Below the pieces are notes generated by a model. That model was not told where the DNA came from. It was given only the letters and a program-made list of their open reading frames with translations, and searched no databases. Shown here in pieces: positions 9,320 through 55,744 of a stretch of DNA of 64,000 nt; within the stretch, counting starts at the first letter, position 1, and each line of letters starts with the position of its first letter. Both the position numbers and the translations under genes were made by a program. The DNA is from a virus. The stretch is from IMG/VR virus record IMGVR_UViG_3300045988_168112; one strand, written 5' to 3'.

Positions 9320-9325
9320 AACATG

Positions 9326-20816: not shown

Positions 20817-21596
20817 TCATTTGTTATTTAATATCCTTTCTAATGTTTCATCAATAGCCATATCAGCAACTCTGTCTATCTGAGCAATTTCAAGTGCCCT
20901 ATCCATCAATCTCTTAGCAATAATACCACCATTGAACCAGCTATTAGGGTCTGACTTGTCACTAACTCTTCTAAATGTCATGTATTGACCTCTATTCTCA
21001 TTTTCTGAACTTGAAGCTTCAACTCGTACAAGCCCTTCATATTTAGCTGCTTTATGAATGTATTCTGGAACTTTTAATCCAGGAATGTTAATTTCTTTTC
21101 TTACACCAGGTATTTGTTGACTTTCAGGTAGTTGAGACCTTTTTAATGGCATTGGTGAATTTTTAGCAAGTTGATATACATCCTGAGGCATAATTGAACT
21201 GAATATTCCTGCTTCAGCAATCGCTTGCGGTGTCGCATGGCGGAACGGTACGGTCAAAAATGGTTTACCATCTTTTGTTCGCTTTGCTTTTAAAGAACCT
21301 AATAAAAATGGTTTTTCATTCCAAGGTCCATGTCCTTCCTCTATAGATAAAGGTAACGAAGATTCTCTATTAGATAATCCAAAAATAATTTCAGTAGGAT
21401 TGACTCGTTCAATAAAAATACCTCTTAAATATTCATTTCGAGAACTTTTTAATTCTTTATCTATTAGATTTTTCCATCTATAGGAATATTCTTGTGCTAC
21501 TCTATCTATAATAGTAGTACCTATCATCAATGTTTGATTTTCATCAAGTGAAAACTCTTCAATAAGAGAAGAAATATCTATATTAATTGGAACCAT
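20817..21596 (-). CDS. Neck / head-tail joining protein (tentative)
   Basis: ORF track. Lies in the neck gene block between the capsid and sheath genes. No motif recognised. Confidence 0.35.
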   Translation of the reverse strand: MVPINIDISSLIEEFSLDENQTLMIGTTIIDRVAQEYSYRWKNLIDKELKSSRNEYLRGIFIERVNPTEIIFGLSNRESSLPLSIEEGHGPWNEKPFLLGSLKAKRTKDGKPFLTVPFRHATPQAIAEAGIFSSIMPQDVYQLAKNSPMPLKRSQLPESQQIPGVRKEINIPGLKVPEYIHKAAKYEGLVRVEASSSENENRGQYMTFRRVSDKSDPNSWFNGGIIAKRLMDRALEIAQIDRVADMAIDETLERILNNK

Positions 21597-22374
21597 ATAT
21601 TTCTTTCTTTAAAAATTCAACCAATTCTTCGACATCATCTGGAACTTTTGCTCCTTTAGAATCGTTTTCACTTGCCCATAGAGGCTGTAAGTTTCTGTAA
21701 TTGAAACAAATACGCTGATTCTCCTCTTTTGTTAAATCGAAATAGGAGCAAGGAATAATATGGTCGATATGCCATTCTCCATAATTATCCCATGACATTC
21801 CTGGCTCGAATTGTAGTTCAAGATGTTGCTTCAATTCTTCAATCGTACAACCGAGAAGTTCGAGAGTATGACCTGATTTCCAACCTTTCGTTATCGCTTG
21901 ATGAATTCTTGACCTTAAATTATGTTTTAAAGCAAAAATTTTATCTATTTTCCTTTTTTCTTGAATATATTTATTACACTTTACTCGTCTTTTTTGTTGT
22001 ATCTTTTTTAATACAATTTTACCATTGATAGATTGATAATATTTTTTATTATACTCTAAAATCTTTACATGTCTCCTTTTTCTAATCAAATATCTTACTT
22101 CTTTCCCTCTTTCAGACTGTTCGTAATTTTTATTTCTCTCTCTTATCTCATTTTTATTTTTTAAATACTTATTCTTATTATATTCCTTTATTTCTTCTTT
22201 ATGAGATTCTCTATATCTTTTAGATGCTTCTTTACTATTATATAAAGGTTTACAATCTTTACATTGATATTCATAACCATCAAAAGTTTTTTTATTTTTG
22301 TAAAAAGAATCTAAAGGAAGTTCCTTTCGACATTTCGAACAAATCTTGGTTCCTTTTTCGAAGTTAGCTCTCAT
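21583..22374 (-). mobile_element. Free-standing HNH homing endonuclease gene inserted in the neck module
   Basis: N-terminal zinc ribbon CSKCRKELPLDSFY...DGYEYQCKDCK, a Lys/Arg-rich linker and a C-terminal HNH core (WHIDHIIPCSYF...NYRNLQPLWASENDSKG). Overlaps the downstream structural gene by 14 nt. Confidence 0.8.
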
Positions 22375-24588: not shown

Positions 24589-26112
24589 TTACAAACCTTC
24601 GTCACCAATGTTAACGATACGTACAATCTTAGCAGGCTGATATAATACCGGAGTACCATAGTTCAAGATACAGAATCGACGACTCGGAGCAGTAACTGCA
24701 AAGTCCATCTTAACAGTATCAGAGAACTGTAAGTATTCGTTAATCTGACTATCATTGTAATATACCAAGGCAGACTTGGTACCTGCAATGATACGGTTGC
24801 GGTCACGTACACAATTTGCAGCAGCACCATCATAACCAGTTGCCATCTGAGAAACAGGTACTTCAAAAATCGGGAAGTATTCTGTCGTATCATTCAAAAC
24901 AGCATCTTTCTTTGTACGATAAATAACAAATGAAGAAGCTGCATAAGCACCACCTACACCAGCAGTAACACCGAACTCAACTGACTGAGTTGCAGTAACA
25001 GCTTGAGCACCAGCAGATGTAATATTCAAAGGTGCAGATTCACCATAACGATTCTTTGCAGTTACCAAGTAACCATAAGCACCTGCATGACGACCAAAGT
25101 TAGTCTTAGTATCAGCATTATTAACCTTAATTGCTGTTCCAGCAGTCGGAGCAACCGGAGCAACCGGAGCTTTCGGACTTGTAGCGCCTTTACCTACTCT
25201 AATAGGCTTACGAACATCAAAGAAACGGTCATTCTTAATGTTAATTTTACCAAACTGGGTTGTAACATCATTTACAGACTGACCCATAGTAGCACCAGTT
25301 ACAGAAGCTGCAAGACCTACGATAACTCGCTTGCTTTCGTGGAACTGTTGTACGTAATTGTTGAATACAATCGGGTTAGAGATGATTCGGTCAATATAAC
25401 CATTATAAACATTCACCACAACATTAGATGCATCCTGAATCATCTTATCATTCAAAACCTGATTCTGAGCATCAATAACAGCCGGAGAATTGAAATAACC
25501 ATCAAGCAGTTGTTCAGAAGTCTTACCTTCTGCTGTACCACCGTCCATTTCATTTACACCCAACATGTGCTGACGGAATACACCATCAAACTCGATATCA
25601 ACACAAGAAGAGTCTGCACTTGTCAATGCTGTGTCAATCAATGTCTGTAGCAAAATGGTCTTATTCTCAACTTCCTGACGATACATGTTATCAATACCGT
25701 TGTATTCAGCAATCATTGCAGGATGAGTTACTTGACCAGTAACACCCATGTATTTAGTCAAGATTGACTTACGTCTGTATTGAGAATCGGTTTCTTCAGG
25801 GGTTTCACCTTCAGTATTGAAGATACTGATATCTTCACCATACTTATACAACTGATTGTACTGATGAACATTCTGTTTAATCTTCTGTTTCGGCATTTCC
25901 ATATAGTACACCAACTGATTCAATCTATTGGTCAAAATCTTCAAGACTGAATCCAAGGATTCAACTTTCAGACCACCACCATTATTAATCATGTTGTTGT
26001 ATTGCATACCGGTCATAGAACCGGCTTCCATAGCTTTCAAGATATCGTTTGATGACAGTCCATCGAACAAATCGATATCTGTTCCGTTATTAGTGTATTG
26101 ATACAAATCCAT
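24589..26112 (-). CDS. Major capsid protein
   Basis: 507-aa ORF directly after the protease and scaffold genes and followed by a strong terminator. The order is typical of HK97-type head modules. Confidence 0.6.
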   Translation of the reverse strand: MDLYQYTNNGTDIDLFDGLSSNDILKAMEAGSMTGMQYNNMINNGGGLKVESLDSVLKILTNRLNQLVYYMEMPKQKIKQNVHQYNQLYKYGEDISIFNTEGETPEETDSQYRRKSILTKYMGVTGQVTHPAMIAEYNGIDNMYRQEVENKTILLQTLIDTALTSADSSCVDIEFDGVFRQHMLGVNEMDGGTAEGKTSEQLLDGYFNSPAVIDAQNQVLNDKMIQDASNVVVNVYNGYIDRIISNPIVFNNYVQQFHESKRVIVGLAASVTGATMGQSVNDVTTQFGKINIKNDRFFDVRKPIRVGKGATSPKAPVAPVAPTAGTAIKVNNADTKTNFGRHAGAYGYLVTAKNRYGESAPLNITSAGAQAVTATQSVEFGVTAGVGGAYAASSFVIYRTKKDAVLNDTTEYFPIFEVPVSQMATGYDGAAANCVRDRNRIIAGTKSALVYYNDSQINEYLQFSDTVKMDFAVTAPSRRFCILNYGTPVLYQPAKIVRIVNIGDEGL

Positions 26113-26144: not shown

Positions 26145-26813
26145 TTACTTTACAAATTTAATACCATTTTTAGTGTACATGTAACGAGCCAATTCTTCAC
26201 CTACTGTTTCAGCATAAGGATTGGTCATATAATTCAATGCATCAGCTTCCAGAGATTTTCTAATTGAATCGTCACTTTCGTTAGTGAGAGCTTTTTCAAT
26301 CATCTTAGCTACCATCGGACGTTGATTGATGATATTAAGTTCAATCTTTCCATTGTCATCCTTTTCAAAGTTCATAGACTTCTGAATAGCTGACATGTTG
26401 TCCAAACCTTCTGAACGAAACTTCGGTGCTTCTTGACCAAACTTATCCATCTTAGCACTCAGGTTATCCAGACTTTCAGCCATACGCTCAATGATAGGAT
26501 TGAAGATTGAACCTACAGACTTCATAATCATTGATTCCATAGATTTCATCATTTCACCTTCTGCATTCTTATCTTCGGCAGTATTCTTTTCATCCTCTTT
26601 CACCTTCTCTTCTTTCTTGACAGCTTCTTTTTCAAGCTTATCAATATCTTCCTCTTCTTTTGTTTCAGACTCATGGTCACCACGAGCTGCTTTATCTTCA
26701 GATTTTTCAATCTTAATATCGCCATTAGCTATTGCTTTTTCGATATATTCCTCGCTAAAGTTTGCATCCAGCAATGACTTCACGATTTTGTTGTCTAAAT
26801 ATTCCTTTTTCAT
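26145..26813 (-). CDS. Scaffolding protein
   Basis: 222 aa, highly charged and helical (KEEEDIDKLEKEAVKKEEKVKEDEK). Lies between the protease and capsid genes. Confidence 0.55.
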   Translation of the reverse strand: MKKEYLDNKIVKSLLDANFSEEYIEKAIANGDIKIEKSEDKAARGDHESETKEEEDIDKLEKEAVKKEEKVKEDEKNTAEDKNAEGEMMKSMESMIMKSVGSIFNPIIERMAESLDNLSAKMDKFGQEAPKFRSEGLDNMSAIQKSMNFEKDDNGKIELNIINQRPMVAKMIEKALTNESDDSIRKSLEADALNYMTNPYAETVGEELARYMYTKNGIKFVK

Positions 26814-26867: not shown

Positions 26868-27647
26868 TTAAATTCGCTGACTTTTTAAGAAATCTTGAAG
26901 AACATTTATAGAAATATGACCCTCTTCATAACTTTTGAATAGATTTTTAAGAATCTCATCATTCTTCGCTTTAAGAGGCTCGATTCTAATTCGAAAATCT
27001 TTATCAATAGAAAGAATATGTCCATCCTTTTCCATTTCAAGTAAAATGTTAGTTGTTCGAAAATCTTTATCAGATTCAAATTCGTAATCTACATAATCCT
27101 TAGTTTGAACTCCCTTTACAATATCTGCAAAAGTATTTGCATTCACTGGAGTCATAGTCATTGCAAGATTCGTAATAAGAGCTTTTTTGATTTTCTTAGG
27201 ATTTGACTTATCTCTTTCAAGAGCTTTACCTTCTATACTAAAACCAGGTTTACGATTGGTACCTGATTCTTTCATCTCAAGTGCCTTATCATAAAATGCT
27301 CTTGCTTCAGGAGATTTTTTCCAAAGTTGACATTTTACATAAAACTTATTATTTTCAACTTTTGCACTAATAGGTGCTCCAATCCAAAAACGAGATTTAT
27401 TAATAGGTGAGCGAGAGGTTAAATGGTCTAAATTTATTAAACCATGTTTCAAAAATCGGTCAATTATAAAACCATTAGGTTCCATAGATTCACCTTCTGC
27501 ATCTTCAGATGTATCGGAAGCCAACCCTTCAAATATCATTCTTTCGTATCTCCTATCATCACCAATTGGATAATCGAGAGGATTAAAAGAAGATTTCTCA
27601 AAGTCAGCTTCTGTAAAAAAGTTAAATCTTGAACCTATTTCAAACAT
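26868..27647 (-). CDS. Prohead maturation protease (HK97/S78-like)
   Basis: The string FEGLASDTSEDAEGESMEPNGF...LINLDHL...WIGAPISAKVENNKFYVKCQL...KPGFSIEGKA follows the S78 pattern G-x-AS..D..GE / DH / iG / GfSieG. Lies upstream of the scaffold gene. Confidence 0.6.
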   Translation of the reverse strand: MFEIGSRFNFFTEADFEKSSFNPLDYPIGDDRRYERMIFEGLASDTSEDAEGESMEPNGFIIDRFLKHGLINLDHLTSRSPINKSRFWIGAPISAKVENNKFYVKCQLWKKSPEARAFYDKALEMKESGTNRKPGFSIEGKALERDKSNPKKIKKALITNLAMTMTPVNANTFADIVKGVQTKDYVDYEFESDKDFRTTNILLEMEKDGHILSIDKDFRIRIEPLKAKNDEILKNLFKSYEEGHISINVLQDFLKSQRI

Positions 27648-28468
27648 TTTCGTTTCTGTTCCATAATCACCGAATTTAGAAATTTATCAATCAAATCATC
27701 GATTTCTTTGTATCTTCTCACTCTTTTCCAATCATTTTCAGAAACTTTCTTCTTCGTTCCCATAATTGCACCGAAAATCGCTGCATTTGTATCAGTATCT
27801 TCGCCATAATTGATAACTGAACAAAGGTCTTCAAAAAGTGTAGAATTCTTATTTTCTTGCGCTAAATAATTATCAATCACGAGATTATATGTGTTTATCA
27901 CATCACCTCTATTATCATAATCATTCACCTCAAGATTTTCCATCGGCAAATCTCCTAACAAATTTTTGAGTATGCAACAAAATTTACTACCGAATTCAAA
28001 ACAATTCTTATTATTGTGTGTATAGCAACAAAACGCTTCAAATAGATTTTTCGTATATTCATCAGATTCATTCAAACAAGCTATTGCAATAGGAAGTGAA
28101 TAAAACAATGCACCGTTGCCCATTCTATCTGTTCTTGAACATCCTTTGCACTGTATTGATTCTACTGTTTGATTTCCAATATCAAACAATCTACTTCCTG
28201 CATTGAATTTCTTGTTTTTATACCATAAATCCAAGTTCTTTTCGAATTTATCAATCTTCTTGATATTTTCTCCAGGTGTACAAAAAGCATCTAATAAACA
28301 CAATAAAACAGATGTATCGTCAGACCACGTTCCCTCTATCTGTCCATGAATTCCTCCTGAAGCGAATCCACAACAGAGAAATGTTCCTTCACTTCTAAAT
28401 TCAAAAGGAACACCAAGTACATCTCCAAGGATATAGGCTCTGATACTATTTCTTATCTTCTCTTTCAT
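27635..28468 (-). CDS. ADP-ribosylglycohydrolase (ARH/DraG family)
   Basis: Family strings AYILGDVLGVPFEF, GTWSDDTS and YGEDTDTNAAIFGAIMG. The ORF track starts at 28516. I prefer ATG 28468 (MKEKIRNSIRAYILGD), which overlaps the end of the 53-aa ORF. Confidence 0.8.
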   Translation of the reverse strand: MKEKIRNSIRAYILGDVLGVPFEFRSEGTFLCCGFASGGIHGQIEGTWSDDTSVLLCLLDAFCTPGENIKKIDKFEKNLDLWYKNKKFNAGSRLFDIGNQTVESIQCKGCSRTDRMGNGALFYSLPIAIACLNESDEYTKNLFEAFCCYTHNNKNCFEFGSKFCCILKNLLGDLPMENLEVNDYDNRGDVINTYNLVIDNYLAQENKNSTLFEDLCSVINYGEDTDTNAAIFGAIMGTKKKVSENDWKRVRRYKEIDDLIDKFLNSVIMEQKRKCLK

Positions 28469-28607
28469 TGTTCTCGAATTTCTTTGCATTCTTAATTGCA
28501 TTGTCAACCATTTCATCAGTTGCTTTTTTCCTCTCTTCTTCAGTAGGAGTATGAATAATACTCATTGTACTGCAGTCATTCCATCTTGATACTTTCTTTG
28601 TTTCCAT
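28446..28607 (-). CDS. Small ORF (53 aa) between promoter and ARH gene
   Basis: Hand translated: METKKVSRWNDCSTMSIIHTPTEEERKKATDEMVDNAIKNAKKFENNEREDKK. The ATG lies 21 nt after the -7 box. Below the ORF-track size cut-off. Confidence 0.4.
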   Translation of the reverse strand: METKKVSRWNDCSTMSIIHTPTEEERKKATDEMVDNAIKNAKKFENNEREDKK

Positions 28608-28627
28608 TAGCTTTTTCTTTTTAGTAT

Positions 28628-28659
28628 CTAAAGATACACCTTTTATTAATGTGGTCCAA
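28628..28659 (-). promoter_or_regulatory. Bacteroidota-type promoter between the ART and ARH genes
   Basis: Coding strand reads TTGG-N19(ACCACATTAATAAAAGGTG)-TATCTTTAG. Confidence 0.65.
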
Positions 28660-28675
28660 CAATTCTAATAAAAAG

Positions 28676-31285
28676 TTACACCATTTCGACAACAATTGAA
28701 TTAAGTCCTTTAGCAAGAACTTTGAATTTACTGAATCTCTGTGTCAAGTATTCATATTCATCAACTGTATTATTGATATTCGCAACTTTATCTCCTTTCT
28801 TAGCCAATAGTGTTATTTGGAAGTCACTTCCAAACAAAGATAGTTGTTTTAATGAAAACGAACTAAAACTCTTATCTTCTATAACAGAACCAACTTCAGC
28901 GTTCAATAATTCATTTAGGCTATTCATATCTCTTGCTTCTAATCTTCTATACAGAACTAAATTTTCTTTGCAAGGATTTTTATCTATTGCTTCAGCAATT
29001 AATTGAGCCATTAAAGCAATTCCTGTTCCACCACCTTTACCGTAATTATAATCTCGAATAGCTTCATAATCAGTACCCATATATCTTTTTAAAGCTTTAT
29101 ATTGAGTCTTAGTAACTTTTAACTTTTTACCTTGTTTTTCATAATAATCTATCATTTCACCTTCATCTTCGAGAGTATGACCTGTAAAATGTTTATACTT
29201 CACACCATTCCATTCTGAATATAAAACACCATTAGCTACTGGAAGATAACCTGAATCAATAAGTACTTTGTTTACTTCAGCTCTTTGTGTTGATTCTAAA
29301 TAAGGATATTTACTAAGGATTTCTTCAAAATCTTCATCTTCAATATAATTTTTAAACCTTTTCTCAATATTTTCATCGATAGTAACTGAATCAAGTACTT
29401 TCCCAAATCTTTCTTTTTGTTCTTTATCTAAAGTATCGTTTTGAGAATTCCTTTTCTTCAAGAATTCTTTGAATTCTTTCTCAGCTTCAAACTTCACATC
29501 GTTCTTTTCTTCTTTAGTATCTAATTTTTTTAGATTATCTTTCAAAGCAAAAACACCTTGATGTTTCGGCCAAGACATAGATTTATTGTTACTCAAATCT
29601 TCCAATAAATACTCTCCTTTATCTTCGTCTCGAGAAAATCTATAATCTACACCATTTTCAGTAAATTCAACTGCCTTACCTTCATCTAACTTCTGTAAAA
29701 TCTTACCATACAGTATCATACCAGCTTGTGACTTTATAGAATCCATTTTAACTACTGGTTTATCAATTTTATCTTTCTTCTCTTCAACTTTCGTTGATTC
29801 TGGTTTCTTAGCTTCTACTGCAAGTTCTGATTTAGATTCTTCTTTTTTAAGAGTCTTTTCAAATTCCTCCTTCACCCGTTTCTTGAATTCATTGAGAGGT
29901 TCATTTGGCTTAGATTCCATATAGAAGGAACCTTTCTTAGCTTTATATTTATCCTCTCCCTTCATATTAAGAACAATTGTCTGACCATCAACCTTAACAT
30001 AGGTTTGAGTGATTTTCTTGAAACCATTCATTTCATTGAGTTTCTTATCGATACTATCAGAAATATCTTGCTTCAATTTATCCAACTTAGAATCAAGTGT
30101 CTTCTCATCTATAGGTTTAGTTTCTTTCGCCTCTTTATTCTTAGCTATCTTTTCTTTGATTTTATTAATTACAGACAAATCTAAATCAAGTTCACCTTTT
30201 TCTTGAGCATCAAGAATACGTTGAAGAGCTGATGTAATACCAAGCTCATTCGCAGATTTATCATCTGACACTTTACCTTTACGATTCTCAATTTCCTTTT
30301 GAGCTGCCTGCTTGACTTCAAGAGAAGCATCTTTATCATTGATTGCAGCTTGTAACTGTTCATCACTTGCTTTAGATGCGTGTTGAGAGTAATCAACTTT
30401 TGCAGTTTTAGCTTCAGATTGTTGTTCATCTTTTTTTGAAGATTTTCCTTTTCCTTTAGGTCTCCAACCGTTAGCAGTTTTCACATATACCTTACCTCCC
30501 CACGTCTTTTCTGTACCAATAGGGGATGATTTCTTAGCTTTCTCTATAATTTCGTCCATAAGTTGTTGTTCAATATTTAGATTTGTTGTATCTTTAGGAA
30601 CAGAAAGAGCGTTGGAGCTTATTAAGGGATTGAGCCTTGCCGAGTCCATATCATTAGAACTATCAGGTCCATCGAGTATAGTCAAGCTCTTTTTAATTTT
30701 ATCTTCAATCTTAATATCTTTATTGTAAGATGTTAATACCCAAAGTTTTTCTCTAAAATTATCATCTTCATCATAAACTACAGACTTTGTAAGTGTCACT
30801 TTCCATTCTCCTTTATAGATATTTACTTTCATCCCGTTTTCATAGAATTTCCCTATTTGCCCATTTTTCAATATATCTGAAATCCTATCTGCTATATCTT
30901 CATAAGATTTAAAATCATTTTGTTCTATAAAATGACGTTTTCTTATATGACGAAGACCTTTTCTTTCATCTCCCCAAATTATATCTATCTTACCAAGTCC
31001 TTCTCTTTCTATAGCTCCAATCACTTGACCGTTTCTTTCTTTCAAAAGAAAATCAATAGCTTCTTTAGGTTTACCTGCATATTTAAAATAATTCCGACCA
31101 AAAACTTTTAATTCGTCTTTAGCATATCGCTCTTTACTTACCTTTTGTCCTTTTACTACTCGCCAACTTCCATCGGCTTGTTTCTGATATTTTACATTCT
31201 TCCATATCCTAATTTCACCAACTACGGCTTTTGCTTTCATTAATTCATTAAAATCTTCTTGATTCTTTATTGTTTGCATCATCAA
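28676..31285 (-). CDS. Polyvalent protein: N-terminal PBECR-like nuclease domain, coiled-coil middle, C-terminal R-S-ExE ADP-ribosyltransferase
   Basis: C-terminus: YKALKRYMGTDYEAIRDYNYGK, LVLYRRL (Arg), KSFSSFS (STS) and VDEYEYL (ExE), the VIP2/C3/Alt-type ART pattern. N-terminus: IIWGDERKGLRHIRKRHF, typical of the Barnase-EndoU-ColicinE5/D-RelE-like phage domains. Confidence 0.8.
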   Translation of the reverse strand: MMMQTIKNQEDFNELMKAKAVVGEIRIWKNVKYQKQADGSWRVVKGQKVSKERYAKDELKVFGRNYFKYAGKPKEAIDFLLKERNGQVIGAIEREGLGKIDIIWGDERKGLRHIRKRHFIEQNDFKSYEDIADRISDILKNGQIGKFYENGMKVNIYKGEWKVTLTKSVVYDEDDNFREKLWVLTSYNKDIKIEDKIKKSLTILDGPDSSNDMDSARLNPLISSNALSVPKDTTNLNIEQQLMDEIIEKAKKSSPIGTEKTWGGKVYVKTANGWRPKGKGKSSKKDEQQSEAKTAKVDYSQHASKASDEQLQAAINDKDASLEVKQAAQKEIENRKGKVSDDKSANELGITSALQRILDAQEKGELDLDLSVINKIKEKIAKNKEAKETKPIDEKTLDSKLDKLKQDISDSIDKKLNEMNGFKKITQTYVKVDGQTIVLNMKGEDKYKAKKGSFYMESKPNEPLNEFKKRVKEEFEKTLKKEESKSELAVEAKKPESTKVEEKKDKIDKPVVKMDSIKSQAGMILYGKILQKLDEGKAVEFTENGVDYRFSRDEDKGEYLLEDLSNNKSMSWPKHQGVFALKDNLKKLDTKEEKNDVKFEAEKEFKEFLKKRNSQNDTLDKEQKERFGKVLDSVTIDENIEKRFKNYIEDEDFEEILSKYPYLESTQRAEVNKVLIDSGYLPVANGVLYSEWNGVKYKHFTGHTLEDEGEMIDYYEKQGKKLKVTKTQYKALKRYMGTDYEAIRDYNYGKGGGTGIALMAQLIAEAIDKNPCKENLVLYRRLEARDMNSLNELLNAEVGSVIEDKSFSSFSLKQLSLFGSDFQITLLAKKGDKVANINNTVDEYEYLTQRFSKFKVLAKGLNSIVVEMV

Positions 31286-31297
31286 TTGTTTTTATTA

Positions 31298-31363
31298 AAT
31301 AGTCTTGAATTATTGTCCTCAGCAAAGTCTACCCCGCAGTCCAATAATATTCAAGACTATTTC
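31298..31363 (-). other. Long imperfect hairpin in the Nudix-ART intergenic gap
   Basis: AAATAGTCTTGAAT (31298-31311) pairs with ATTCAAGACTATTT (31350-31363). An inner TATTG/CAATA extension and a relatively GC-rich loop follow. Confidence 0.5.
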
Positions 31364-31372
31364 AACGAATTC

Positions 31373-33232
31373 TTAATGTAACTGCAAACGATACTTCGTC
31401 TGTTTGAGTGTTGCCATAAAATCTTCAACCCAAGACTTTTCACCTGCATAATTTTGCTTGTCTTCGAGTTTAGAATAGAATTCTTTTGTCCTATCAATAA
31501 TCAGATTGATAAGTCCTATCGGGTCATCAACTTCAATTTCTTCACCGTTGATTTCACCTTCTTTGAATCGTCCGAATTCTGACTGTCCTGCTTCCATTAT
31601 CTTATCTTCATAATCTGAAAGTTCCTCTATCAAATCATCGAGATATTGATGTTTAGCATTATCTTCTTCACTCCAATGGATATTCTTTGATTTCGTCTTC
31701 ACGCCTTCAATGAAATTAGCAAAATCAGCAAACACTCTGTACATCTCATCTTTTGCTTTTAGAATCTCAGAACCATCATCTAAAGAAACGTTACTGTTTA
31801 TCTCTTTACGAATATCATCTATACCCCAAGATTTCTCTATTTCTTCATCAGAAACAAGAATCTTGTTTATATCGAGTTTTCCTTCGTTTTTCATCTCATT
31901 CAGTAAAGATTTGAACATATCAGCTTGGTCGAGGTCATTGAAGTCAATTAACATTCTAAAACCTGTTGGTTCTTCAGTTTCAATCTCAATAGATTTTTCT
32001 ATACCATCACCTTCAGGTTCTTTTGTTTCTTTATCTAAATCTTCTTTACATAAAGCATTAACACTATTACAATCTATAGTCTTTTCAACATTCTCTTTTT
32101 CTTTCCAATCCTCAGGAAGTTCATTCTCAAGACCCAGCTCTTTAGCACGTTTCTTAATCCATGCTTTCACCTTTTCTTTCGGCATATCAGAAGCGCCGGA
32201 CAACTTAATAGCATCTTTCAAATCCTGACTATTCCTTATAGGATATTTCCCGTTCGGCATTGCCTCGCCTTTCTTTGCAAGGTCTTTTCTTTCTGTATGT
32301 GAAAAATAGGTTTTATTATTTGCCTTTTTGATATCTTCTGGACATGATTTACAAACATCGCCGAAGACTTTTTCTGAAATATCACCATTCAAAAATGACT
32401 TCATAATCTTCAAGACTTTATTTTCAGATACTTCAAGTCCTAAAATTCGTTTGATATTATCTTTCATATCAAAAATGAAATCATAATCATCTAACTCTGT
32501 AGATGGATTAATCCAAGCAGAACCAATTTCTTCTTCACTATCAAGCAACAATGAAGCTGGAGCTTCACTATCAATATGACCTATAAAATAATGAATTTCA
32601 AAATCTTTACCTGTCGCGATTCCAACTGGATAAAGCAAATCTTCAGGAACATCTAATCCAGTCTCTTCAAATAATTCTCTATGAGCTGCTTCACGCCATT
32701 CTTCTCCTGCATCTACATGACCTCCAGGAATACACCATTCAGTAGTACTTTCACCCATATCACCAACTCTCTGTAGGATAAGAAGTTTGTCCCCTCTAAA
32801 TAAAAGCACATCTGCATATTTCACTTTACCAATCTTCGCTTTGATAATGTCATTGTAAATAGACTTTGAAATTACACCAGATTTACACAATCCTTTAGCT
32901 TCAAAGAGGTCTTTCATATCTACAAGTGCTTCTGCAATTTCAGTATCATCTTCTAATAATTTTATAGACTTTTCTATAGAAGTCTTTTCTTTTTGGATAC
33001 TTGCAACATGTTTCGTATGTTCCTTCAAAAAAGAATCGTATCTTTTCAAAGCATCTTCTTTCTCTTCTGCATCTAAAGTGGAGATACTTTTAATAATACT
33101 ATTCTGTTGTGCAAACTCATCTGCAAGATTATCTATCTCTTTATTGATATCTTGAGATTTTTGAAGAAGTTTTCTGTACTGATTGATTTTTTCTTCTTTT
33201 GAACGAAAACCAAATAATTTCTTTATATTCAT
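31373..33232 (-). CDS. Multidomain protein: coiled coil, Nudix hydrolase, C-terminal Dps/ferritin-like region (tentative)
   Basis: Perfect Nudix box GHVDAGEEWREAAHRELFEETGL (G-x5-E-x7-REUxEExGU). The C-terminal KNIHWSEEDNAKHQYLDDLIEELSDYEDKIMEAGQSEFG...GEKSWVEDFMATLKQTKYRL resembles Dps helices. Confidence 0.7.
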   Translation of the reverse strand: MNIKKLFGFRSKEEKINQYRKLLQKSQDINKEIDNLADEFAQQNSIIKSISTLDAEEKEDALKRYDSFLKEHTKHVASIQKEKTSIEKSIKLLEDDTEIAEALVDMKDLFEAKGLCKSGVISKSIYNDIIKAKIGKVKYADVLLFRGDKLLILQRVGDMGESTTEWCIPGGHVDAGEEWREAAHRELFEETGLDVPEDLLYPVGIATGKDFEIHYFIGHIDSEAPASLLLDSEEEIGSAWINPSTELDDYDFIFDMKDNIKRILGLEVSENKVLKIMKSFLNGDISEKVFGDVCKSCPEDIKKANNKTYFSHTERKDLAKKGEAMPNGKYPIRNSQDLKDAIKLSGASDMPKEKVKAWIKKRAKELGLENELPEDWKEKENVEKTIDCNSVNALCKEDLDKETKEPEGDGIEKSIEIETEEPTGFRMLIDFNDLDQADMFKSLLNEMKNEGKLDINKILVSDEEIEKSWGIDDIRKEINSNVSLDDGSEILKAKDEMYRVFADFANFIEGVKTKSKNIHWSEEDNAKHQYLDDLIEELSDYEDKIMEAGQSEFGRFKEGEINGEEIEVDDPIGLINLIIDRTKEFYSKLEDKQNYAGEKSWVEDFMATLKQTKYRLQLH

Positions 33233-33269: not shown

Positions 33270-33704
33270 TTATGAAATATCACTCTTGATACGAATATCT
33301 TCAACGTAATAAAAATCACGTTCACCTATATAGACATTATAAAAGAATCTGTTCACAGTTTCAAGTTTCTCAATACGGTCAACTATATAACTATTCTTTC
33401 TACCCTCAAGTATCATTCCTGGTTTTAATTTAGAGGTTTTTGTAAGTGAACAAGTCTTTTTGTTTGAATCTATAACATAAAGTAACTGTTCTCCTGATAT
33501 TCTATCTAAAACTACTTCTTCATCAGCATGACAATATACGTTATAGACAGATTCATTAAAACGCGCAGCTCTTTTATAAAGAGCTTCTAATTTTGCAAAT
33601 CCATTTTTGTTCACAATCAAATCACCAATTTTCAAATCTTTGATAAACTTAGGTCCTTCGAATGTCTTCACTTCGACGAAACTTGAATTAAAACCACCTT
33701 TCAT
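33270..33704 (-). CDS. Hint (hedgehog/intein)-like domain protein, degenerate (tentative)
   Basis: SFVEVKTFEGPKFIKDLKIGDLIV...VYNVYCHADEEVVL...KLKPGMILEG...FFYNVYIGERDFYYVEDIRIK follows the Hint block order. It lacks the TxxH and terminal HN residues. Confidence 0.4.
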   Translation of the reverse strand: MKGGFNSSFVEVKTFEGPKFIKDLKIGDLIVNKNGFAKLEALYKRAARFNESVYNVYCHADEEVVLDRISGEQLLYVIDSNKKTCSLTKTSKLKPGMILEGRKNSYIVDRIEKLETVNRFFYNVYIGERDFYYVEDIRIKSDIS

Positions 33705-33706
33705 AT

Positions 33707-34306
33707 TTATTCATGTATTATTGTTTTTAATACTCCACCAAAATCTTGGATAACATATTCTATAGGTGCTATCAGATTATAAAGAGTTCCTTTGTATGTA
33801 GTTTCTTTAATATCTTTAACAATAAGTTTTCTTACACCAAAATGACTTTTAGATGTATCTTCAAAACTTTTTACATACTCTTCAATCGATAATTTTCGTT
33901 CCTCACTATCTGACCTTAAAGATGAACCTGATATTCTATTCAAACACTCACCTTCAGTCATCTCACTTAAAAGTTTTTCATCTAAAATAGGTAAACAACA
34001 TTTTTGAGAATATTTACCAATAAATAATTTTTGACCTTCACAAATTGAAATCTCTCCAGCTTCACTTTCAAAGATTAAAGTAAATATCTTACCATTATAA
34101 TCTCCTATATTGATTCTTGCTGGCATATATCTAAAACTAAAGGTAGGAATATGAAGCATCTTAACAAAATCAATTCCATTCTTATTAAGGTCACTGATTT
34201 TGATGAATTCATCTTCAAACCTCTCTTCTTTAAGTCTACTATCTTCGTAAGTTTCAACCTTCTTTCTCAAGACTTGTACTAACACATCTCCTTTGTATCC
34301 TATCAT
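33707..34306 (-). CDS. Hint-like domain protein (tentative)
   Basis: EISICEGQKLFIG...GTLYNLIAPIEYVIQDFGGVLKTIIHE resembles Hint blocks B, F and G. The start overlaps the MuF stop codon (ATGA). Confidence 0.35.
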   Translation of the reverse strand: MIGYKGDVLVQVLRKKVETYEDSRLKEERFEDEFIKISDLNKNGIDFVKMLHIPTFSFRYMPARINIGDYNGKIFTLIFESEAGEISICEGQKLFIGKYSQKCCLPILDEKLLSEMTEGECLNRISGSSLRSDSEERKLSIEEYVKSFEDTSKSHFGVRKLIVKDIKETTYKGTLYNLIAPIEYVIQDFGGVLKTIIHE

Positions 34307-35253
34307 ACTATAAACTCTTTATTGCCGACTGTTATTTTAACTTTACTTCTTCTCTCAACTTTTCTATCAAAATGTTTGACTGGTTCAAATGATTGTGTTT
34401 CGTCATTCCAAACATATGATTTCGGGATATAACGCATATTACACCTACAAAATGGGTGAATTGGTCCAAGAGTTGGTTTCCAATCTTTTGACTTTAAACC
34501 TATATTGTCACCATTCGCTATTAGGTCAATCAACTTGAATATTCTTGGCTTCGTACCTACACCTCCAGTTGTATAGAGTTGTTGACAATATTTACACGCA
34601 CCAGGGTACACTTGTTTATATACCAATGCTTCTGCACCATGTTCATTCATTATCTGTTGTGCTACACCTATTTGATAGACGTATTGCATTTCAGTCTCGA
34701 CTATTCTGCCCCAATCTCTATTCCAATCGTCCAACGAATGTCCTATACTACTGATAATAGATTGGATTGATTTCTTTTTCAAAGTTCCTTCAATTATTTC
34801 CTTCTTAATGGTGGTTAATTCAAGTTGTCTTTGAATTTCTGCTATTAACTTAACCTCCTCTTCAGATATAGAATTTGAAAGAATATCCCGCATTCTTTTC
34901 CCCATTGTCTTTATATAGGAGTAAGTTCGGGTCGCTGCAGCATCGTACATTGCTTTTTCTGAAGCTGTCAATGCCTTATACTGCTTCTTGTCTATGTAAG
35001 ACAAAAGGTCAGTATAATCCAATGTCCTTAATTGACTTGGAGTCAATTGTCCTGATAATCTACCAAAAAGGTATGATTGATAATATGGAGGCAATTTCTT
35101 CAATTCATCCTTCCATTTATAACCATACCTTTTTAATAACTCCTTGTCTTCAGAAGATAATTTACTCTCACCAAGAACATCTGCAACAATTCTTGCAAGT
35201 CGATAATCTATAATATCGAATAACCTCTGTATTTCATCAGGAGTGAAAATCAT
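34303..35253 (-). CDS. Head morphogenesis protein, MuF / SPP1 gp7 family
   Basis: Diagnostic C-terminal LGPIHPFCRCNMRYIP (H-P-x-C-R-C). Lies downstream of the portal gene. Confidence 0.8.
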   Translation of the reverse strand: MIFTPDEIQRLFDIIDYRLARIVADVLGESKLSSEDKELLKRYGYKWKDELKKLPPYYQSYLFGRLSGQLTPSQLRTLDYTDLLSYIDKKQYKALTASEKAMYDAAATRTYSYIKTMGKRMRDILSNSISEEEVKLIAEIQRQLELTTIKKEIIEGTLKKKSIQSIISSIGHSLDDWNRDWGRIVETEMQYVYQIGVAQQIMNEHGAEALVYKQVYPGACKYCQQLYTTGGVGTKPRIFKLIDLIANGDNIGLKSKDWKPTLGPIHPFCRCNMRYIPKSYVWNDETQSFEPVKHFDRKVERRSKVKITVGNKEFIV

Positions 35254-35453
35254 TGTTTTGCAATTTTAGTCATTTCCTTGGTCAAATCTATCATCATATT
35301 ATTGACCTGAGTTGAAAACATAACTTGTGCCAATCCTTCATATCCACATTGGACTTTCGGATAACGAATAGGGTCCTTTGTATGATATATAACATTCGAC
35401 TTTTTAGCCATCTGTTTGATATCAACTCCATCAACTTTTTTAATCGGCGGCAT
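35250..35453 (-). CDS. Hypothetical protein (67 aa)
   Basis: ORF track. Its start and stop overlap the portal and MuF genes. Confidence 0.5.
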   Translation of the reverse strand: MPPIKKVDGVDIKQMAKKSNVIYHTKDPIRYPKVQCGYEGLAQVMFSTQVNNMMIDLTKEMTKIAKQ

Positions 35454-37168
35454 TACTTGTATAAATTAGTTTTATAATAATTTATCGCTTCTGCAAGTAT
35501 AGGATTATTGTCAAATGATTTATACTTATCAAACGGGTTTTCACTGAATGATTCTTCATCATTTGGAACTCCTGCTTCTTCTGATTCTCCAGGAACAGAC
35601 GCTCCATACATCTGCTGCTGTTGTTCAGCTTGCTTTGCAGTCTGATAAACTTGATTGATAATGATATCGTTTTCTGGGTCAAGTGGTCTTCCTGAATACT
35701 TCTGGAATATATCTTGCATTGCAACCATACCTTTTTCAAGTTTCTCAGCATCAAGTTTTACTTGAGCTTCTTCATCTTCAACCTCAATACCAGTAAATGA
35801 AAATTCGAAATCTTCATCAAGCTCACTTACGATATATTTCGTAATCACATTCTCCAGGAATATAAGAATAGGTTTCAAACCTTTCTCTCTACTATGTTGC
35901 AATCTGGCTTTTTGACCATCTTGTCCAAAGATTTGAGCTTGGTCTTTGAATTGGAATCCTAATTCCGTAGGGTCTATTCTATAGACAGAACAACTCATTA
36001 TAACCAAGAATTTCAACCAATCATTGAATTCCATATCACGGTTTCCTTTCTGGAGGTCAATCCATTCCAAATCGATACCATTGATAACCGGTACCCTATG
36101 AGAATTCTCAACTCCCCTCATCGTCTGCATCCATGCCTGACGAAATTCATTCAATGTTGATGGTGAAATATTCGCATTCTTTACATTAATAAAACCTTTT
36201 GGTTGAGAACCTTGTTTGAAAAATAATCCATTATAACTCATTCCCCATAATATCCATGTAATAATCTCTACAAGAGTTTCAAGTTCACTTGTACCATATC
36301 CATTCTTACGAATATTAGAAGTTTTGTTTCTAATACCAAATCCAAGCTCCCATGGATAATATAAAATTGGTTCTTTTGTCATAGGATTACGAATAATCAT
36401 ATCATCCCATACCATACAATATCTTGGTAAATAACCTTTGAACCTGTATCCTTCAAAAGCTTCTCTTTGTCTTGGGTCAACAGTATCAAGAAATCGAATA
36501 AGTGATGCATCAATAGCTCTGAATTTTTTCAATTCCCAATCACGACTCCTGACAACTTCAAATGCCAGTTGGTCCAATGTAAGACTATCGAATGTTATCT
36601 TACGAACGAATTCTTGAAAACTATCCAGATTATCCCACTTCTCATTCCATCCTCCGTTCTCAAGGAATTTCACAATATTCTCTATCTTTCTTTTATCTTC
36701 GTTAGAAAGTTCATCTTCTTTCTCTTCTTTGAAGAGACTTTTCTTTCTTCGGATAGTATATCCTTCTTTTTGTTCATCTTCAGAAAAATGCAGAAAATTT
36801 TGAACTTGCTCAATACGTGTATTAACTATTGCACGAATGATATAAATATCTCCCATTCTCCGAAGAGTAGAAAATGATAGAACTCCCTTTGAATCTTTGA
36901 ATCCTTTACCATTCCCCGCTAAATCATTAGGGTCAAAGAAAACAGATTGTATATGAGGATTCGTCTTATTGATTTCGCCTAAATACAAATTAGCTTTCAA
37001 CAACTCTTCCGTATCATTAGAACTCAAAGCTGATTGAAGTTTACTTTGGAATGCCATAGGGGCTGCTTTTTGTATCGAATCAAGTTCTTCTAAAGAAAGT
37101 CCAGCCAGACTCGATAAAAAGTCTGGCTTTGACTTAATTTGAGAATTTCGTTTATTTCTTTTTCCCAT
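35453..37168 (-). CDS. Portal protein
   Basis: 571 aa. YGTSELE...NGLFFKQGSQPKGFINV...FRQAWMQTMRGVENSHRVPVI...SVYRIDPTELGF follows the Phage_portal pattern. Lies upstream of MuF. Confidence 0.8.
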   Translation of the reverse strand: MGKRNKRNSQIKSKPDFLSSLAGLSLEELDSIQKAAPMAFQSKLQSALSSNDTEELLKANLYLGEINKTNPHIQSVFFDPNDLAGNGKGFKDSKGVLSFSTLRRMGDIYIIRAIVNTRIEQVQNFLHFSEDEQKEGYTIRRKKSLFKEEKEDELSNEDKRKIENIVKFLENGGWNEKWDNLDSFQEFVRKITFDSLTLDQLAFEVVRSRDWELKKFRAIDASLIRFLDTVDPRQREAFEGYRFKGYLPRYCMVWDDMIIRNPMTKEPILYYPWELGFGIRNKTSNIRKNGYGTSELETLVEIITWILWGMSYNGLFFKQGSQPKGFINVKNANISPSTLNEFRQAWMQTMRGVENSHRVPVINGIDLEWIDLQKGNRDMEFNDWLKFLVIMSCSVYRIDPTELGFQFKDQAQIFGQDGQKARLQHSREKGLKPILIFLENVITKYIVSELDEDFEFSFTGIEVEDEEAQVKLDAEKLEKGMVAMQDIFQKYSGRPLDPENDIIINQVYQTAKQAEQQQQMYGASVPGESEEAGVPNDEESFSENPFDKYKSFDNNPILAEAINYYKTNLYK

Positions 37169-37180
37169 CGTCAGATAATT

Positions 37181-38683
37181 TTAAGCTCCAGCTAATTGCG
37201 TTAAAGTAACAGTCGCTGTCTTATTTCCTTCTGTTGTAGTAACCACTGCTGTTCCAGTTCTCTGTGCTCCAGTATTTGCTGCTGCCACTACTGAATATTC
37301 CGAAGACCCTTTTGTAAATCCTTCACCCTGGACTGTCGTAGTATAAGTTACCGCAGAAGGAATGCCGCTATTACTTCCATTAACCTTCTTCTGTTTAGTA
37401 GCTGTTACTCCGAATATTTTAGTCTCTCCTGCTGCCGCAAAAGAAAGTGTGGTTGGGTCTACAGTACATGTATATTCATAGGTAACTGTCGCTGCAAGCT
37501 GTGTTAACGTAACATTTACCGTCTTGTTGCTTTCAGTCTGTGTAATAGTAATAGAACCGTTATTATCTGTTTCTGCCTTATTTTCAGCCGCCACTATACT
37601 ATAATTCTCTCCATTAGATGTTTCAGATGAAGTCTGGCTGAATCCAGTTCCGGTAATCTGTGCAGTCGTATCTACCTTCTCGACACCACCGGAAGGCTTG
37701 CCGTTGACTTTTTTCTGTCTTGTTGAAACAATTTGTAAACTCTTCGTTTCTCCAAGCGCTACAAACTGTATGGTCTGTGAATTGGCAGACAACGCATAAT
37801 CATATGTCACTATAGCTGCATTCTGTGTAAGTGTCACTTCCGCAGTCTTTCCACCATCCTGCGAAATAGTCGCTTTTCCTGTTCTCTGTGAGCTTCCGGT
37901 ATTCTCAGAAGCTTTCAAATTGTAGTTATTTCCGCTTTCCTCATAATCGAACCCTACACCTGCCAGTTCTATATCAGTAGGATATGTTTCTGGCTGCTGT
38001 TTTACTCCATTCAGAACTTTTGTTCTTGTAGAGGTAACAGTGACAAGCTTTTCACCTCCTGCACCGTCGAACGTTACCGCTGTCGGGTCTACTGTAAGCG
38101 CATATTCGTAGGTTACAGTAGATGCAGCCTGGTTGCATGTAATCTGCAATGTCTTTCCGCTTTCATTCTGTTTAACCGTCACTACCGCTTTTCTTGTCGT
38201 GTTGTTGGGGTTCTCGTCAACCGTTACTTGTCCTCCACCGTCAACCTTGAATCCTGCCCCAGATATTGAGAATTCCACTGGTACACCTTCCGGATGTCCT
38301 ACTGGTTTCCCGTTCTTAAAAGTCTGCTTAGAAGACGTCACCACGCACATATCATCACCTCCCTTTGCAGGGAAATTAAGTGTAGGTTCTTTAGTCTCCA
38401 ATACGTATTCCACAACTTCCTGCACGTCCGACAATACCGCGCCTTCTTCTCCGAATCCTTCCGGATATGAGATAAGCTTAACAAGCGCCTTAAACGCCCA
38501 TTCCTTGAACTGTCCTATATTATAAGTATGACCAGCTTCAATTACAATACCGATAGACTTATAATATTCAATTGCTCCAACAACGTTTTCAGTTACAAAA
38601 ACATTCAACTGACTGTCTAAACCATCAGTTATGACAGTCAGTTGTTTGGAATTATCTTCTGTTGTAAATAATAATCGTAACAT
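37181..38683 (-). CDS. Virion surface protein with four tandem BACON/Ig-like repeats
   Basis: Four ~100-aa repeats, each with the shape TVTYEYALTVDPT..F.A.GE......T.........ASENTGSSQRTGKATI....KTAEVTLTQ.A. The ~32-aa N-terminus is paralogous to the next gene. Confidence 0.6.
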   Translation of the reverse strand: MLRLLFTTEDNSKQLTVITDGLDSQLNVFVTENVVGAIEYYKSIGIVIEAGHTYNIGQFKEWAFKALVKLISYPEGFGEEGAVLSDVQEVVEYVLETKEPTLNFPAKGGDDMCVVTSSKQTFKNGKPVGHPEGVPVEFSISGAGFKVDGGGQVTVDENPNNTTRKAVVTVKQNESGKTLQITCNQAASTVTYEYALTVDPTAVTFDGAGGEKLVTVTSTRTKVLNGVKQQPETYPTDIELAGVGFDYEESGNNYNLKASENTGSSQRTGKATISQDGGKTAEVTLTQNAAIVTYDYALSANSQTIQFVALGETKSLQIVSTRQKKVNGKPSGGVEKVDTTAQITGTGFSQTSSETSNGENYSIVAAENKAETDNNGSITITQTESNKTVNVTLTQLAATVTYEYTCTVDPTTLSFAAAGETKIFGVTATKQKKVNGSNSGIPSAVTYTTTVQGEGFTKGSSEYSVVAAANTGAQRTGTAVVTTTEGNKTATVTLTQLAGA

Positions 38684-46336: not shown

Positions 46337-46906
46337 TTACTTATTTTTCTTTGTTGGTTTGATAACTCTTTTGTCCTCGAATTTATCCTTTACATAGAGC
46401 AACCATACACGACGTACATTCGTATAGGTACAATTCATGATTGTACGGATTTTGTAATGTGACCAATTAGGATGTTCCAGTATCATGTTATAGATTTCCA
46501 ACGATTGCTTACCACGAGGCTTTTCTTGACGATAACTTGCTCTTTTGGTAGAAGATTTTCTCTTCTTACTTATAGTGAAAGAAATTGTACGAAGAGTATC
46601 ATCAGCTTTCAATATTGTAAGGCCATAGGATTTGGCTTTATAATTCTTCTTTGCATCATCAAAATGTGCTTCGTCGAAAGTGATTATGATTTGTTCGTTG
46701 TTACATTTAGTAGTACCATTGTAGGTTTTGATGAAGTCGTTGAGCGCTTGCTTTTGTTCAGGAGTCTGGCCTTCAAGTCCTACCTCTTTTTCTGCCTCTT
46801 CGATAAGAGCGATAAGTTCGTCTTTCTTATACTTCTTGATATTCTTGATACCAAGTTCACTTGCTCTTTTTCTCAATTGCTCGACTGTCATAACTGTTGT
46901 TTTCAT
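46337..46906 (-). CDS. DNA/RNA-binding protein with Rho_N/SAP-like N-terminal domain
   Basis: TVEQLRKRASELGIKNIKKYKKDELIALIEEAE matches the Rho-N/SAP helix-extended-helix pattern. The C-terminus is basic. Confidence 0.5.
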   Translation of the reverse strand: MKTTVMTVEQLRKRASELGIKNIKKYKKDELIALIEEAEKEVGLEGQTPEQKQALNDFIKTYNGTTKCNNEQIIITFDEAHFDDAKKNYKAKSYGLTILKADDTLRTISFTISKKRKSSTKRASYRQEKPRGKQSLEIYNMILEHPNWSHYKIRTIMNCTYTNVRRVWLLYVKDKFEDKRVIKPTKKNK

Positions 46907-55532: not shown

Positions 55533-55744
55533 TTAGGGCATTCTGCCGATTTATTACCTTTAGTATCTGTGTATGTATAGATACTTTCTCCTTTTGAGGA
55601 AATCACATCGACCATACAGCCGCACTTCGTACACTTTCTATGCGCATTGTTAGGGTTGTTTATCCATCTATGCCCTTTTCTGTTTTCTGCGCCTAACTTT
55701 GTTCCTCTATTAAATCCCATAATCACACCCTTTCCCGTAAACAT
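55523..55744 (-). CDS. Small zinc-ribbon protein
   Basis: ORF track. Cys pairs CTKCGC ... CPNC. Confidence 0.5.
   Translation of the reverse strand: MFTGKGVIMGFNRGTKLGAENRKGHRWINNPNNAHRKCTKCGCMVDVISSKGESIYTYTDTKGNKSAECPNCI

Follow-up and report, generated by a model that had tools for sequence, protein, structure and literature searches.

The 64,000-nucleotide (nt) stretch of viral DNA analysed here, IMG/VR record IMGVR_UViG_3300045988_168112 (the window), encodes a Nudix protein, an ADP-ribosyltransferase (ART) and an ADP-ribosylglycohydrolase (ARH) close together in its head module, which raises the question of whether the three enzymes work as one unit. Positions below are those of the whole window, in which all head-module genes discussed lie on the minus strand. 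Inspection of the sequence recovered the three minus-strand open reading frames (ORFs) of an initial annotation of this DNA, at 33232..31373 (Nudix), 31285..28676 (ART) and 28516..27635 (ARH), with all the motifs that it had quoted. It had described them as three consecutive genes between MuF and the prohead protease. The flanking genes were right, but ORFs of 199 amino acids (aa; 34306..33707) and 144 aa (33704..33270), to which no family was given, lie between the MuF-like and Nudix genes, and a 53-aa ORF (s53, 28446..28607) lies between the ART and ARH genes. We found that the Nudix gene is an ancestral gene of the head module, and that ART and ARH form an accessory cassette in a variable slot before the prohead protease gene.

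The evidence came from a comparison of related loci. Eighty IMG/VR loci anchored on the major capsid protein (MCP; 67–99% identity), together with MT835500 and phage DAC19, were scored for the content of the interval between the Nudix and protease genes, which was covered in 74 loci. The Nudix protein flanked the interval in all 74. ART and ARH were both present in 17 loci, ART without ARH in one (L084, which keeps the small ORF) and ARH without ART in none. The remaining 56 intervals contained neither; they were empty (135–260 bp), or held an unrelated 343-aa protein or a protein with PBECR1 (phage Barnase-EndoU-ColicinE5/D-RelE-like nuclease 1) only. An IMG/VR scan anchored on ARH covered the best 80 of 207 relatives, with identities down to 25%, and the ART gene was directly upstream in 25 of the 25 ARH homologues of at least 46% identity. 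These observations showed that ART and ARH are a linked pair, gained and lost together. We rejected the possibility of an ARH at another genomic site in ART-less relatives, as none of their contigs, several of which are 105–108 kb long, was among the best 80 of the 207 ARH matches. Relatives with the same gene order were ∼81% identical to the window in MCP, 58–76% in ARH, 60–65% in the Nudix protein and 45–55% in ART.

Because the Nudix gene was found in 74/74 loci and 56 of these were without ART and ARH, its adjacency to the ART–ARH pair reflects the position of the slot and not a three-enzyme unit. The initial annotation had proposed an integrated ADP-ribosylation toolkit, in which ART writes the modification, ARH erases it, and the Nudix enzyme clears freed ADP-ribose or NAD-derived signals. 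The writer and the eraser are indeed paired, but the Nudix protein is not part of their unit. In favour of the toolkit, the three genes are neighbours on one strand, ARH would free ADP-ribose, which is a substrate of some Nudix enzymes, and phage T4 has, besides its ARTs, the Nudix enzyme NudE.1, whose substrates are ADP-ribose, Ap3A, FAD and NAD-capped RNA (PMC9503650; bioRxiv 10.1101/2024.04.04.588121). Against these points stand the distribution above and phage DAC19 (MCP 33% identical), which carries a 226-aa Nudix gene two genes upstream of the protease, without ART or ARH. The toolkit was therefore considered rather improbable, and the properties of the Nudix domain itself also bear on it.

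The 619-aa Nudix protein consists of long N-terminal helices, the Nudix domain (aa 137–265, 32438..32824), a middle part that is helical and partly disordered, and a C-terminal DUF5856 four-helix bundle. The textbook Nudix box named in the initial annotation was confirmed as GHVDAGEEWREAAHRELFEETGL at aa 171–193 (nt 32654–32722), which satisfied the regular expression GX5EX7REUXEEXGU, and the domain matched PF00293 with E = 4e-16 (59.6 bits against a cut-off of 21.1). An AlphaFold2 (AF2) model of the whole protein had a mean predicted local distance difference test score (pLDDT) of 69.5, with block means of ∼65–88 in the Nudix domain, and a Foldseek search with this domain returned MutT, ORF135, YmfB, NadM-ADPRase and RppH, all at probability 1.0, so that the expected Nudix-fold matches were obtained but no subfamily was favoured. 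The domain is very likely an active enzyme, because the residues of the Nudix box were invariant in 14 homologues.

Its substrate could not be assigned in the same way. The best sequence matches were NUDT1/MutT-like and RppH-like; matches from the PDB sequence search and Foldseek were scattered over MutT, NUDT1, ADP-ribose pyrophosphatase (ADPRase), RppH and GDPMH. All NCBIfam equivalogs scored far under their cut-offs (the best, RppH, at 30 against 116 bits), and Foldseek against BFVD gave generic Nudix matches only. ADPRases reportedly bear a proline 15–16 residues after the Nudix box; no proline was seen there, and no profile matched at the subfamily level. Since sequence and fold searches gave generic matches only, ADP-ribose specificity is neither supported nor excluded by them. 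The weak NadM-type ADPRase matches count for the toolkit; the lack of a favoured subfamily, the low equivalog scores and the missing proline count against it. The claim that the Nudix domain clears ADP-ribose or NAD-derived signals is thus not sustained, as neither sequence nor fold assigned it a substrate and it is independent of ART and ARH.

The C-terminal part (aa 488–619, 31376..31771) was assigned as a DUF5856, Dps-like four-helix bundle by PF19174 (E = 1.4e-8) and phrog_858, and its helices lay at 488–517, 522–552, 571–589 and 593–618 in the AF2 model. Bacteroides phage crAss001 and its relatives have a 'putative DpsA protein' to which it was 38% identical, and crAss-like DpsA models in BFVD were matched as well. 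The Dps-like DUF5856 domain was observed to be common to otherwise unrelated gut phage lineages. The family of the whole protein had 1345 matches, and the Nudix plus DUF5856 architecture was present in nearly all of the 120 listed. The Nudix domain was also matched by phrog_15528, a portal–Nudix fusion.

The 869-aa ART protein (28676..31285) starts with TTG at 31285, followed by ATG ATG, and its closest cluster representative is 867 aa long. From the N-terminus it comprises PBECR1 (aa 91–190, 30716..31015; PF18809 at E = 1.6e-10, 41.9 bits against a cut-off of 27.6), middle domains without assignment, and a C-terminal R-S-ExE ART domain (aa ∼720–869, 28679..29128). A Pfam scan of the full-length protein at E ≤ 0.01 did not call the ART domain. 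The isolated C-terminus scored 37.6–38.6 bits against PF03496 (cut-off 23.4), and five of nine cassette ART variants matched this family singly. In the PDB, the domain matched Vip2 at 4e-7, and at 6e-10 when a profile from nine divergent variants was used; this profile also matched Lmo0066, Certhrax, C2-I and SpvB. The motifs LYRR (aa 778), FSSFS (aa 807) and EYEYL (aa 843) contain the predicted catalytic residues R780, S809-F810-S811 and E843-Y-E845. In the Vip2 alignment R780, S809/S811 and E843/E845 were in register with the YR, STS and ExE motifs, and R780, S809, F810, E843 and E845 were invariant in nine cassette types that were 33–58% identical. The earlier description of a polyvalent protein ending in an R-S-ExE ART was borne out by these results. 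The ExE (not QxE) motif and the precedent of Bxa, an arginine-modifying ART with two neutralising partners, the small binder Bsi and the adjacent ARH1-like hydrolase BAH (Alexei et al. 2024, PMC11699363), suggest that arginine would be the target.

The protein combines two unrelated effector domains, PBECR1 and ART, and its gene lies between the portal/MuF and protease/MCP genes, as expected of a polyvalent protein. It is not a MuF fusion: its N-terminal domain is PBECR1, and MuF has a gene of its own. Its sequence diverges faster than those of the neighbouring proteins, and relatives show it to be modular, with PBECR1 missing from variants of ∼630–735 aa. No match to the ART domain was found in a protein search of isolate phages. 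This ART variant seems to be confined to phage contigs, because an ART-pattern scan of 185,579 bacterial genomes found nothing. The ART gene was split over three frames in L002, L005 and L024, by frameshifts or assembly errors.

The placement of this gene bears on how the ART might reach its targets. For ARTs that are polyvalent or encoded in head modules, packaging is predicted (PMC5512222, PMC9503650), and the initial annotation agrees with this literature in that head modules encode packaged effectors. By analogy, the effector would be packaged and injected. Bxa, whose gene has the same genomic context, is released and targets proteins of epithelial cells and bacteria (PMC11699363), and the present ART might likewise be set free at lysis and not injected, acting against bacteria or on the host, with the immunity genes shielding the producer only. 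We regard such release as improbable. The fusion partner of the ART here, PBECR1, is characteristic of polyvalent proteins for which delivery with the DNA is predicted (PMC5512222), and neither integrase nor lysogeny genes were seen across the 64 kb covered, the genome extending ∼40 kb beyond the window.

A motif, G[TE]E[KR]xWxGxxYxKxxxGxW, was observed near the N-terminus or past PBECR1 in slot proteins, and occurs at aa 23–41 and 257–274 of the window effector. A scan of 10,309 ORFs gave this W-G-Y-K-type motif in 25; all were on the gene strand, and every inspected one was a slot gene. Sites in relatives include the slot proteins at L084 6306–8108, L087 7421–8335 and L090 5672–7468, and the 343-aa protein of L036 (3797–4828) contains a looser motif-like sequence only, judged by eye. 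It may represent a small beta-hairpin domain or serve as a capsid-targeting signal.

The ARH gene (27635..28468, with the longest ORF reaching 28516) encodes 293 aa in its longest form and 277 aa from Met17 (nt 28468). Met17 is probably the start, because homologues span only ∼91% of the longer ORF. In the 293-aa numbering, GVPFEF lies at aa 35, SDDTS at aa 65 and GEDTDTNAA at aa 238. The assignment as an ARH/DraG-type enzyme was upheld by PF03747 (E = 4e-24, 86.2 bits against a cut-off of 26.2), by phrog_6572 (E = 7e-34) and by the intact metal-ligand motifs. The best PDB sequence matches were Tri1 (6dre, 1.4e-11) and Lmo0067 (8za7_A, 1.8e-11), followed by Thermus ARH and MJ1187. Among 14 homologues, 30–73% identical, the motifs GD..G.P.E, WSDDTS, FDIG, GNG, TH and G.DTDT were invariant or nearly so; WSDDTS was near-invariant, with its first Asp varying. 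The Tri1 equivalog NF041672 was not reached (52.5 bits against a cut-off of 490), the alignment beginning at Tri1 residue 70. The comparison with Tre1/Tri1 made in the initial annotation is supported, as the best solved-structure relatives of both halves are ART–ARH pairs (6dre, 8za7).

The 3' end of the ARH gene overlaps the protease start codon by 13 nt, so ARH is probably expressed late with the head genes. This would suit a temporal reset, in which early marks made by the injected ART are reversed by late ARH once they are no longer useful, and so would the generic nature of ARH across ART variants and the strict co-occurrence of the two genes. Nevertheless, the sole characterised phage case uses its ARH as producer-cell immunity (PMC11699363), the ART-bearing L084 keeps its small ORF without ARH, and a reset is inseparable from self-protection on this computational evidence. 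A temporal reset was thus judged to be unlikely.

An orphan ARH, 49–50% identical to the phage enzyme and with intact catalytic motifs, was observed without ART in the ENA contigs L015–L017 (gene 9001–9810). It lies in a small Parabacteroides integrative element with integrase, HTH_17, Phage_CRI replication protein and T5orf172, and was indexed in 96 collection blocks. A scan of 185,579 bacterial genomes with ARH gave one close relative, in Parabacteroides faecalis (49%; L100, NZ_JAKZMM010000016.1, 7001–7813), and the remaining matches were generic ARHs at ∼30% identity. The orphan ARH may be an antidote against injected phage ARTs. An ARH standing alone also fits the view that the phage ARH is a counter-defence against host ART-based defence and that its adjacency to the phage ART is coincidental, and phage domains that remove ADP-ribose have been considered as possible counters to host ADP-ribosylation defences (PMC9503650). 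On the other hand, ARH never occurred without ART in this phage group, and this ARH is most closely related to arginine hydrolases of the Tri1 type. The host defence ARTs DarT and CmdT modify nucleic acids, which also speaks against counter-defence. We consider this explanation very improbable.

The small gene between ART and ARH was found to be conserved. In relatives whose ARH is 65–88% identical, s53 was 57–72% identical. Its dN/dS was 0.16–0.41, and it is under purifying selection. Positional counterparts were present in more distant cassettes, and an ORF of 51–60 aa followed the ART gene in every locus examined, the ARH-less L084 included, with the first ART of L007 as the exception. In L007, two tandem ART genes encoding 414 aa and 773 aa were observed at 6176–9808. 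Its ARH was 99% identical to that of the window, its second ART 42% and the unrelated 60-aa ORF after this ART 23%, which makes L007 the clearest case. Pairwise identities over nine cassette types indicated that divergence of the small ORF tracks that of ART (Spearman rho 0.83) more than that of ARH (0.42). This co-variation supports a pairing of each ART with its small ORF, and s53 is a candidate ART-specific structural immunity protein in a position like that of Bsi. No Pfam or PADLOC match was found for the small ORFs or for the 343-aa slot protein.

Taken as a whole, the locus is read here, with somewhat better than even confidence, as an ancestral Nudix gene followed by a separate slot cassette of a packaged ART effector, an ART-specific 53-aa protein and a generic ARH. 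By analogy with Bxa/Bsi/BAH and with polyvalent proteins, the effector, s53 and ARH would be made late, together with the head proteins. In the producing cell s53 would block the ART, and ARH would erase stray ADP-ribosyl-arginine, so that the cell keeps working. Only the effector would then be packaged, enter the next host along with the DNA and modify the proteins of that host. The roles of s53 and ARH in immunity are suggested by the same analogy.

Several observations weigh against this reading. The co-variation of ART and the small ORF is explicable by physical linkage alone, and was measured on nine cassette types, uncorrected for phylogeny. The second ART protein of L007 carries the s53 sequence as an in-frame N-terminal fusion, which is unusual for an immunity protein. 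For the small ORFs no homology to anything was detected, and they are likened to Bsi by position. The AF2 model of the 869-aa protein, made from a 14-sequence alignment, failed (mean pLDDT 40.7, unusable), so the ART fold is assigned from sequence profiles only. In addition, no cultured relative exceeds 33% MCP identity.

A wider conjecture, which we put forward tentatively and expect more probably to fail than to hold, joins several of these observations. Widespread gut Bacteroidales myoviruses of ∼105 kb would carry a dedicated, fast-turning cargo slot in which effector cassettes are swapped, each ART with its own micro-immunity protein of ∼55 aa and a universal ARH; the W-G-Y-K-type motif would be the capsid-targeting signal, and the Parabacteroides element would have captured ARH as an orphan antidote. 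If this were true, phage and host would be engaged in an effector/immunity arms race of the kind known from type VI secretion systems (T6SS).

The cassette lies in the head module. Upstream are the portal gene (37168..35453, PF04860), a 67-aa ORF (35453..35250) and the MuF-like minor head protein gene (34303..35253; phrog_115, weak, E = 1.9e-6), which is not fused to ART. The 199-aa ORF between the MuF-like and Nudix genes was missing from several relatives, and the 144-aa ORF was kept at 21–48% identity. The prohead protease gene (26868..27647; phrog_1028, E = 1e-35) is the downstream edge of the variable slot, and is followed by genes for a scaffold-like protein (26813..26145) and MCP (26112..24589, phrog_752). 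In relatives, the portal coding sequence was interrupted in L002 (1125–2431) and L006 (1495–2810), and the MuF coding sequence in L010/L012/L014 (3801–4135) and L018 (2641–3692). These inserts of 0.3–1.3 kb, absent from the window, may be inteins, homing endonucleases or introns.

Other window genes specify a tail sheath and a tube-initiator-like protein, and the phage is an uncultured gut myovirus of ∼105 kb. Contigs of relatives reach ∼108 kb and come mostly from human gut metagenomes, going by their sample identifiers. The nearest isolates by MCP were the Bacteroides thetaiotaomicron phages DAC16-23 and SJC03 (33% identity), followed by SPO1-like phages, and the host is probably a member of Bacteroidales. 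A nucleotide search of a 14-kb region against isolate phages matched a single 182-bp stretch. A scan for sigma-70 promoters and terminators, which does not cover Bacteroidota promoters, gave the same counts as shuffled sequence. No further NAD- or ADP-ribose-related genes were seen among the window ORFs scanned.

Several other genes, all on the minus strand, were noted in the window. A giant ORF of more than 3108 aa (1–9325), which runs off the left end, looks like a baseplate or fibre protein, and its N-terminal part contains Baseplate_J, four carboxypeptidase-regulatory-like domains and a PEGA domain. A 500-aa protein (37181–38683) encoded immediately before the portal, on its upstream side, has internal repeats of ∼100 aa with an Ig- or BACON-like look; it self-matches at 34–56% in relatives and has no PHROG match. 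A 263-aa ORF in the structural module (21583–22374) shows, by eye, Cys-rich N-terminal motifs and an HNH-like C-terminus (WHIDHIIP...NLQPLW...N), and had no Pfam match at E ≤ 0.01. The remaining observations were a protein with a Rho_N domain (46337–46906), a protein with a polynucleotide kinase 3'-phosphatase domain (55710–56237, PF08645), possibly for RNA repair, and a ribonucleotide reductase fragment-like protein (62520–63917, phrog_367).

These results do not overturn current understanding; the cassette is a real conserved feature and not a new kind of system. The dual-immunity logic of a small binder and an ARH eraser would be extended from one Bacteroides prophage to a large, abundant, uncultured gut myovirus lineage, and to polyvalent, PBECR1-fused effectors. 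The natural panel of ART/small-ORF variants sharing one ARH would allow a ready cross-immunity experiment, and this panel and the orphan Parabacteroides ARH are the most useful leads. The head-module Nudix–Dps-like protein, conserved in every member of the lineage, can now be separated from the accessory cassette for study.

The initial annotation knew of no description of this three-part arrangement as a phage module, but its ART–ARH part has already been characterised as Bxa/Bsi/BAH (PMC11699363), and head-associated Nudix and ART proteins have been surveyed (PMC9503650). The Bxa/Bsi/BAH system, characterised experimentally in a Bacteroides stercoris prophage (PMC11699363), and the present cassette share the order ART, small ORF, ARH, with a C-terminal R-S-E-type ART adjoined by a small non-enzymatic ORF and an ARH-type hydrolase. 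Arginine modification has been shown for Bxa and is predicted here from the ExE motif. The likeness is one of gene order and domain type. The two also differ: the ART of Bxa is fused to an N-terminal MuF, whereas here MuF is separate and the ART is fused to PBECR1 and further, unassigned domains; and Bxa belongs to a prophage, whereas the present phage is a myovirus of ∼105 kb without sign of lysogeny in the 64 kb covered. The same order of ART, small ORF and ARH was found in L217, from an unrelated IMG/VR phage group and one of the more distant ARH relatives, which encodes a portal, a fusion of minor capsid protein 2 (PF06152) with ART, a 96-aa ORF, ARH, scaffold and MCP; its PF06152 domain was taken as MuF-like.

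Polyvalent proteins combine effector domains, are linked to head genes and are predicted to be delivered with the DNA, and PBECR1 is typical of them (Iyer et al. 2017, PMC5512222). The present protein resembles them in combining PBECR1 and ART in one polypeptide beside the portal, MuF and protease genes, and in being modular and shuffled among relatives. It differs in its R-S-ExE ART, since the ARTs of polyvalent proteins are mainly H-Y-D (Tox-ART-HYD2) and Alt/VIP2-clade R-S-E ARTs are absent from genuine ones; the same paper makes no mention of glycohydrolase partners (PMC5512222).

The combination of an ART toxin with an ARH-fold immunity enzyme is also that of Tre1–Tri1 (Serratia T6SS) and Lmo0066–Lmo0067 (Listeria, 8za7). 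Tri1 and Lmo0067 were the best PDB matches of the phage ARH, and the ART matched Lmo0066 (8za7_B), the other chain of 8za7; these pairs, however, are bacterial secretion-system effectors and not phage genes. The N-terminal region of Tri1 occludes Tre1, and the 277-aa phage ARH has no counterpart of this region of the 366-aa Tri1. Phage T4 likewise has an R-S-E ART, Alt, which is delivered from the head, and a Nudix enzyme in the same genome, NudE.1, but the genes for the two do not sit side by side in a head module. T4 is not known to encode an ARH or to carry a small immunity gene next to alt.

Packaging has been proposed for phage ARTs and Nudix proteins whose genes lie in the head region, and ART–ARG pairs are known in Aeromonas phages, ARG domains being rare in phages (Iyer et al. 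2022, PMC9503650). The Nudix gene described here lies, as in that survey, among portal, MuF and protease genes, but its 619-aa product has long helices and a DUF5856 domain, an architecture that was not found described. The locus is placed here in a known class, that of a head-module ART effector with dual immunity, as a new member whose predicted delivery architecture is different.

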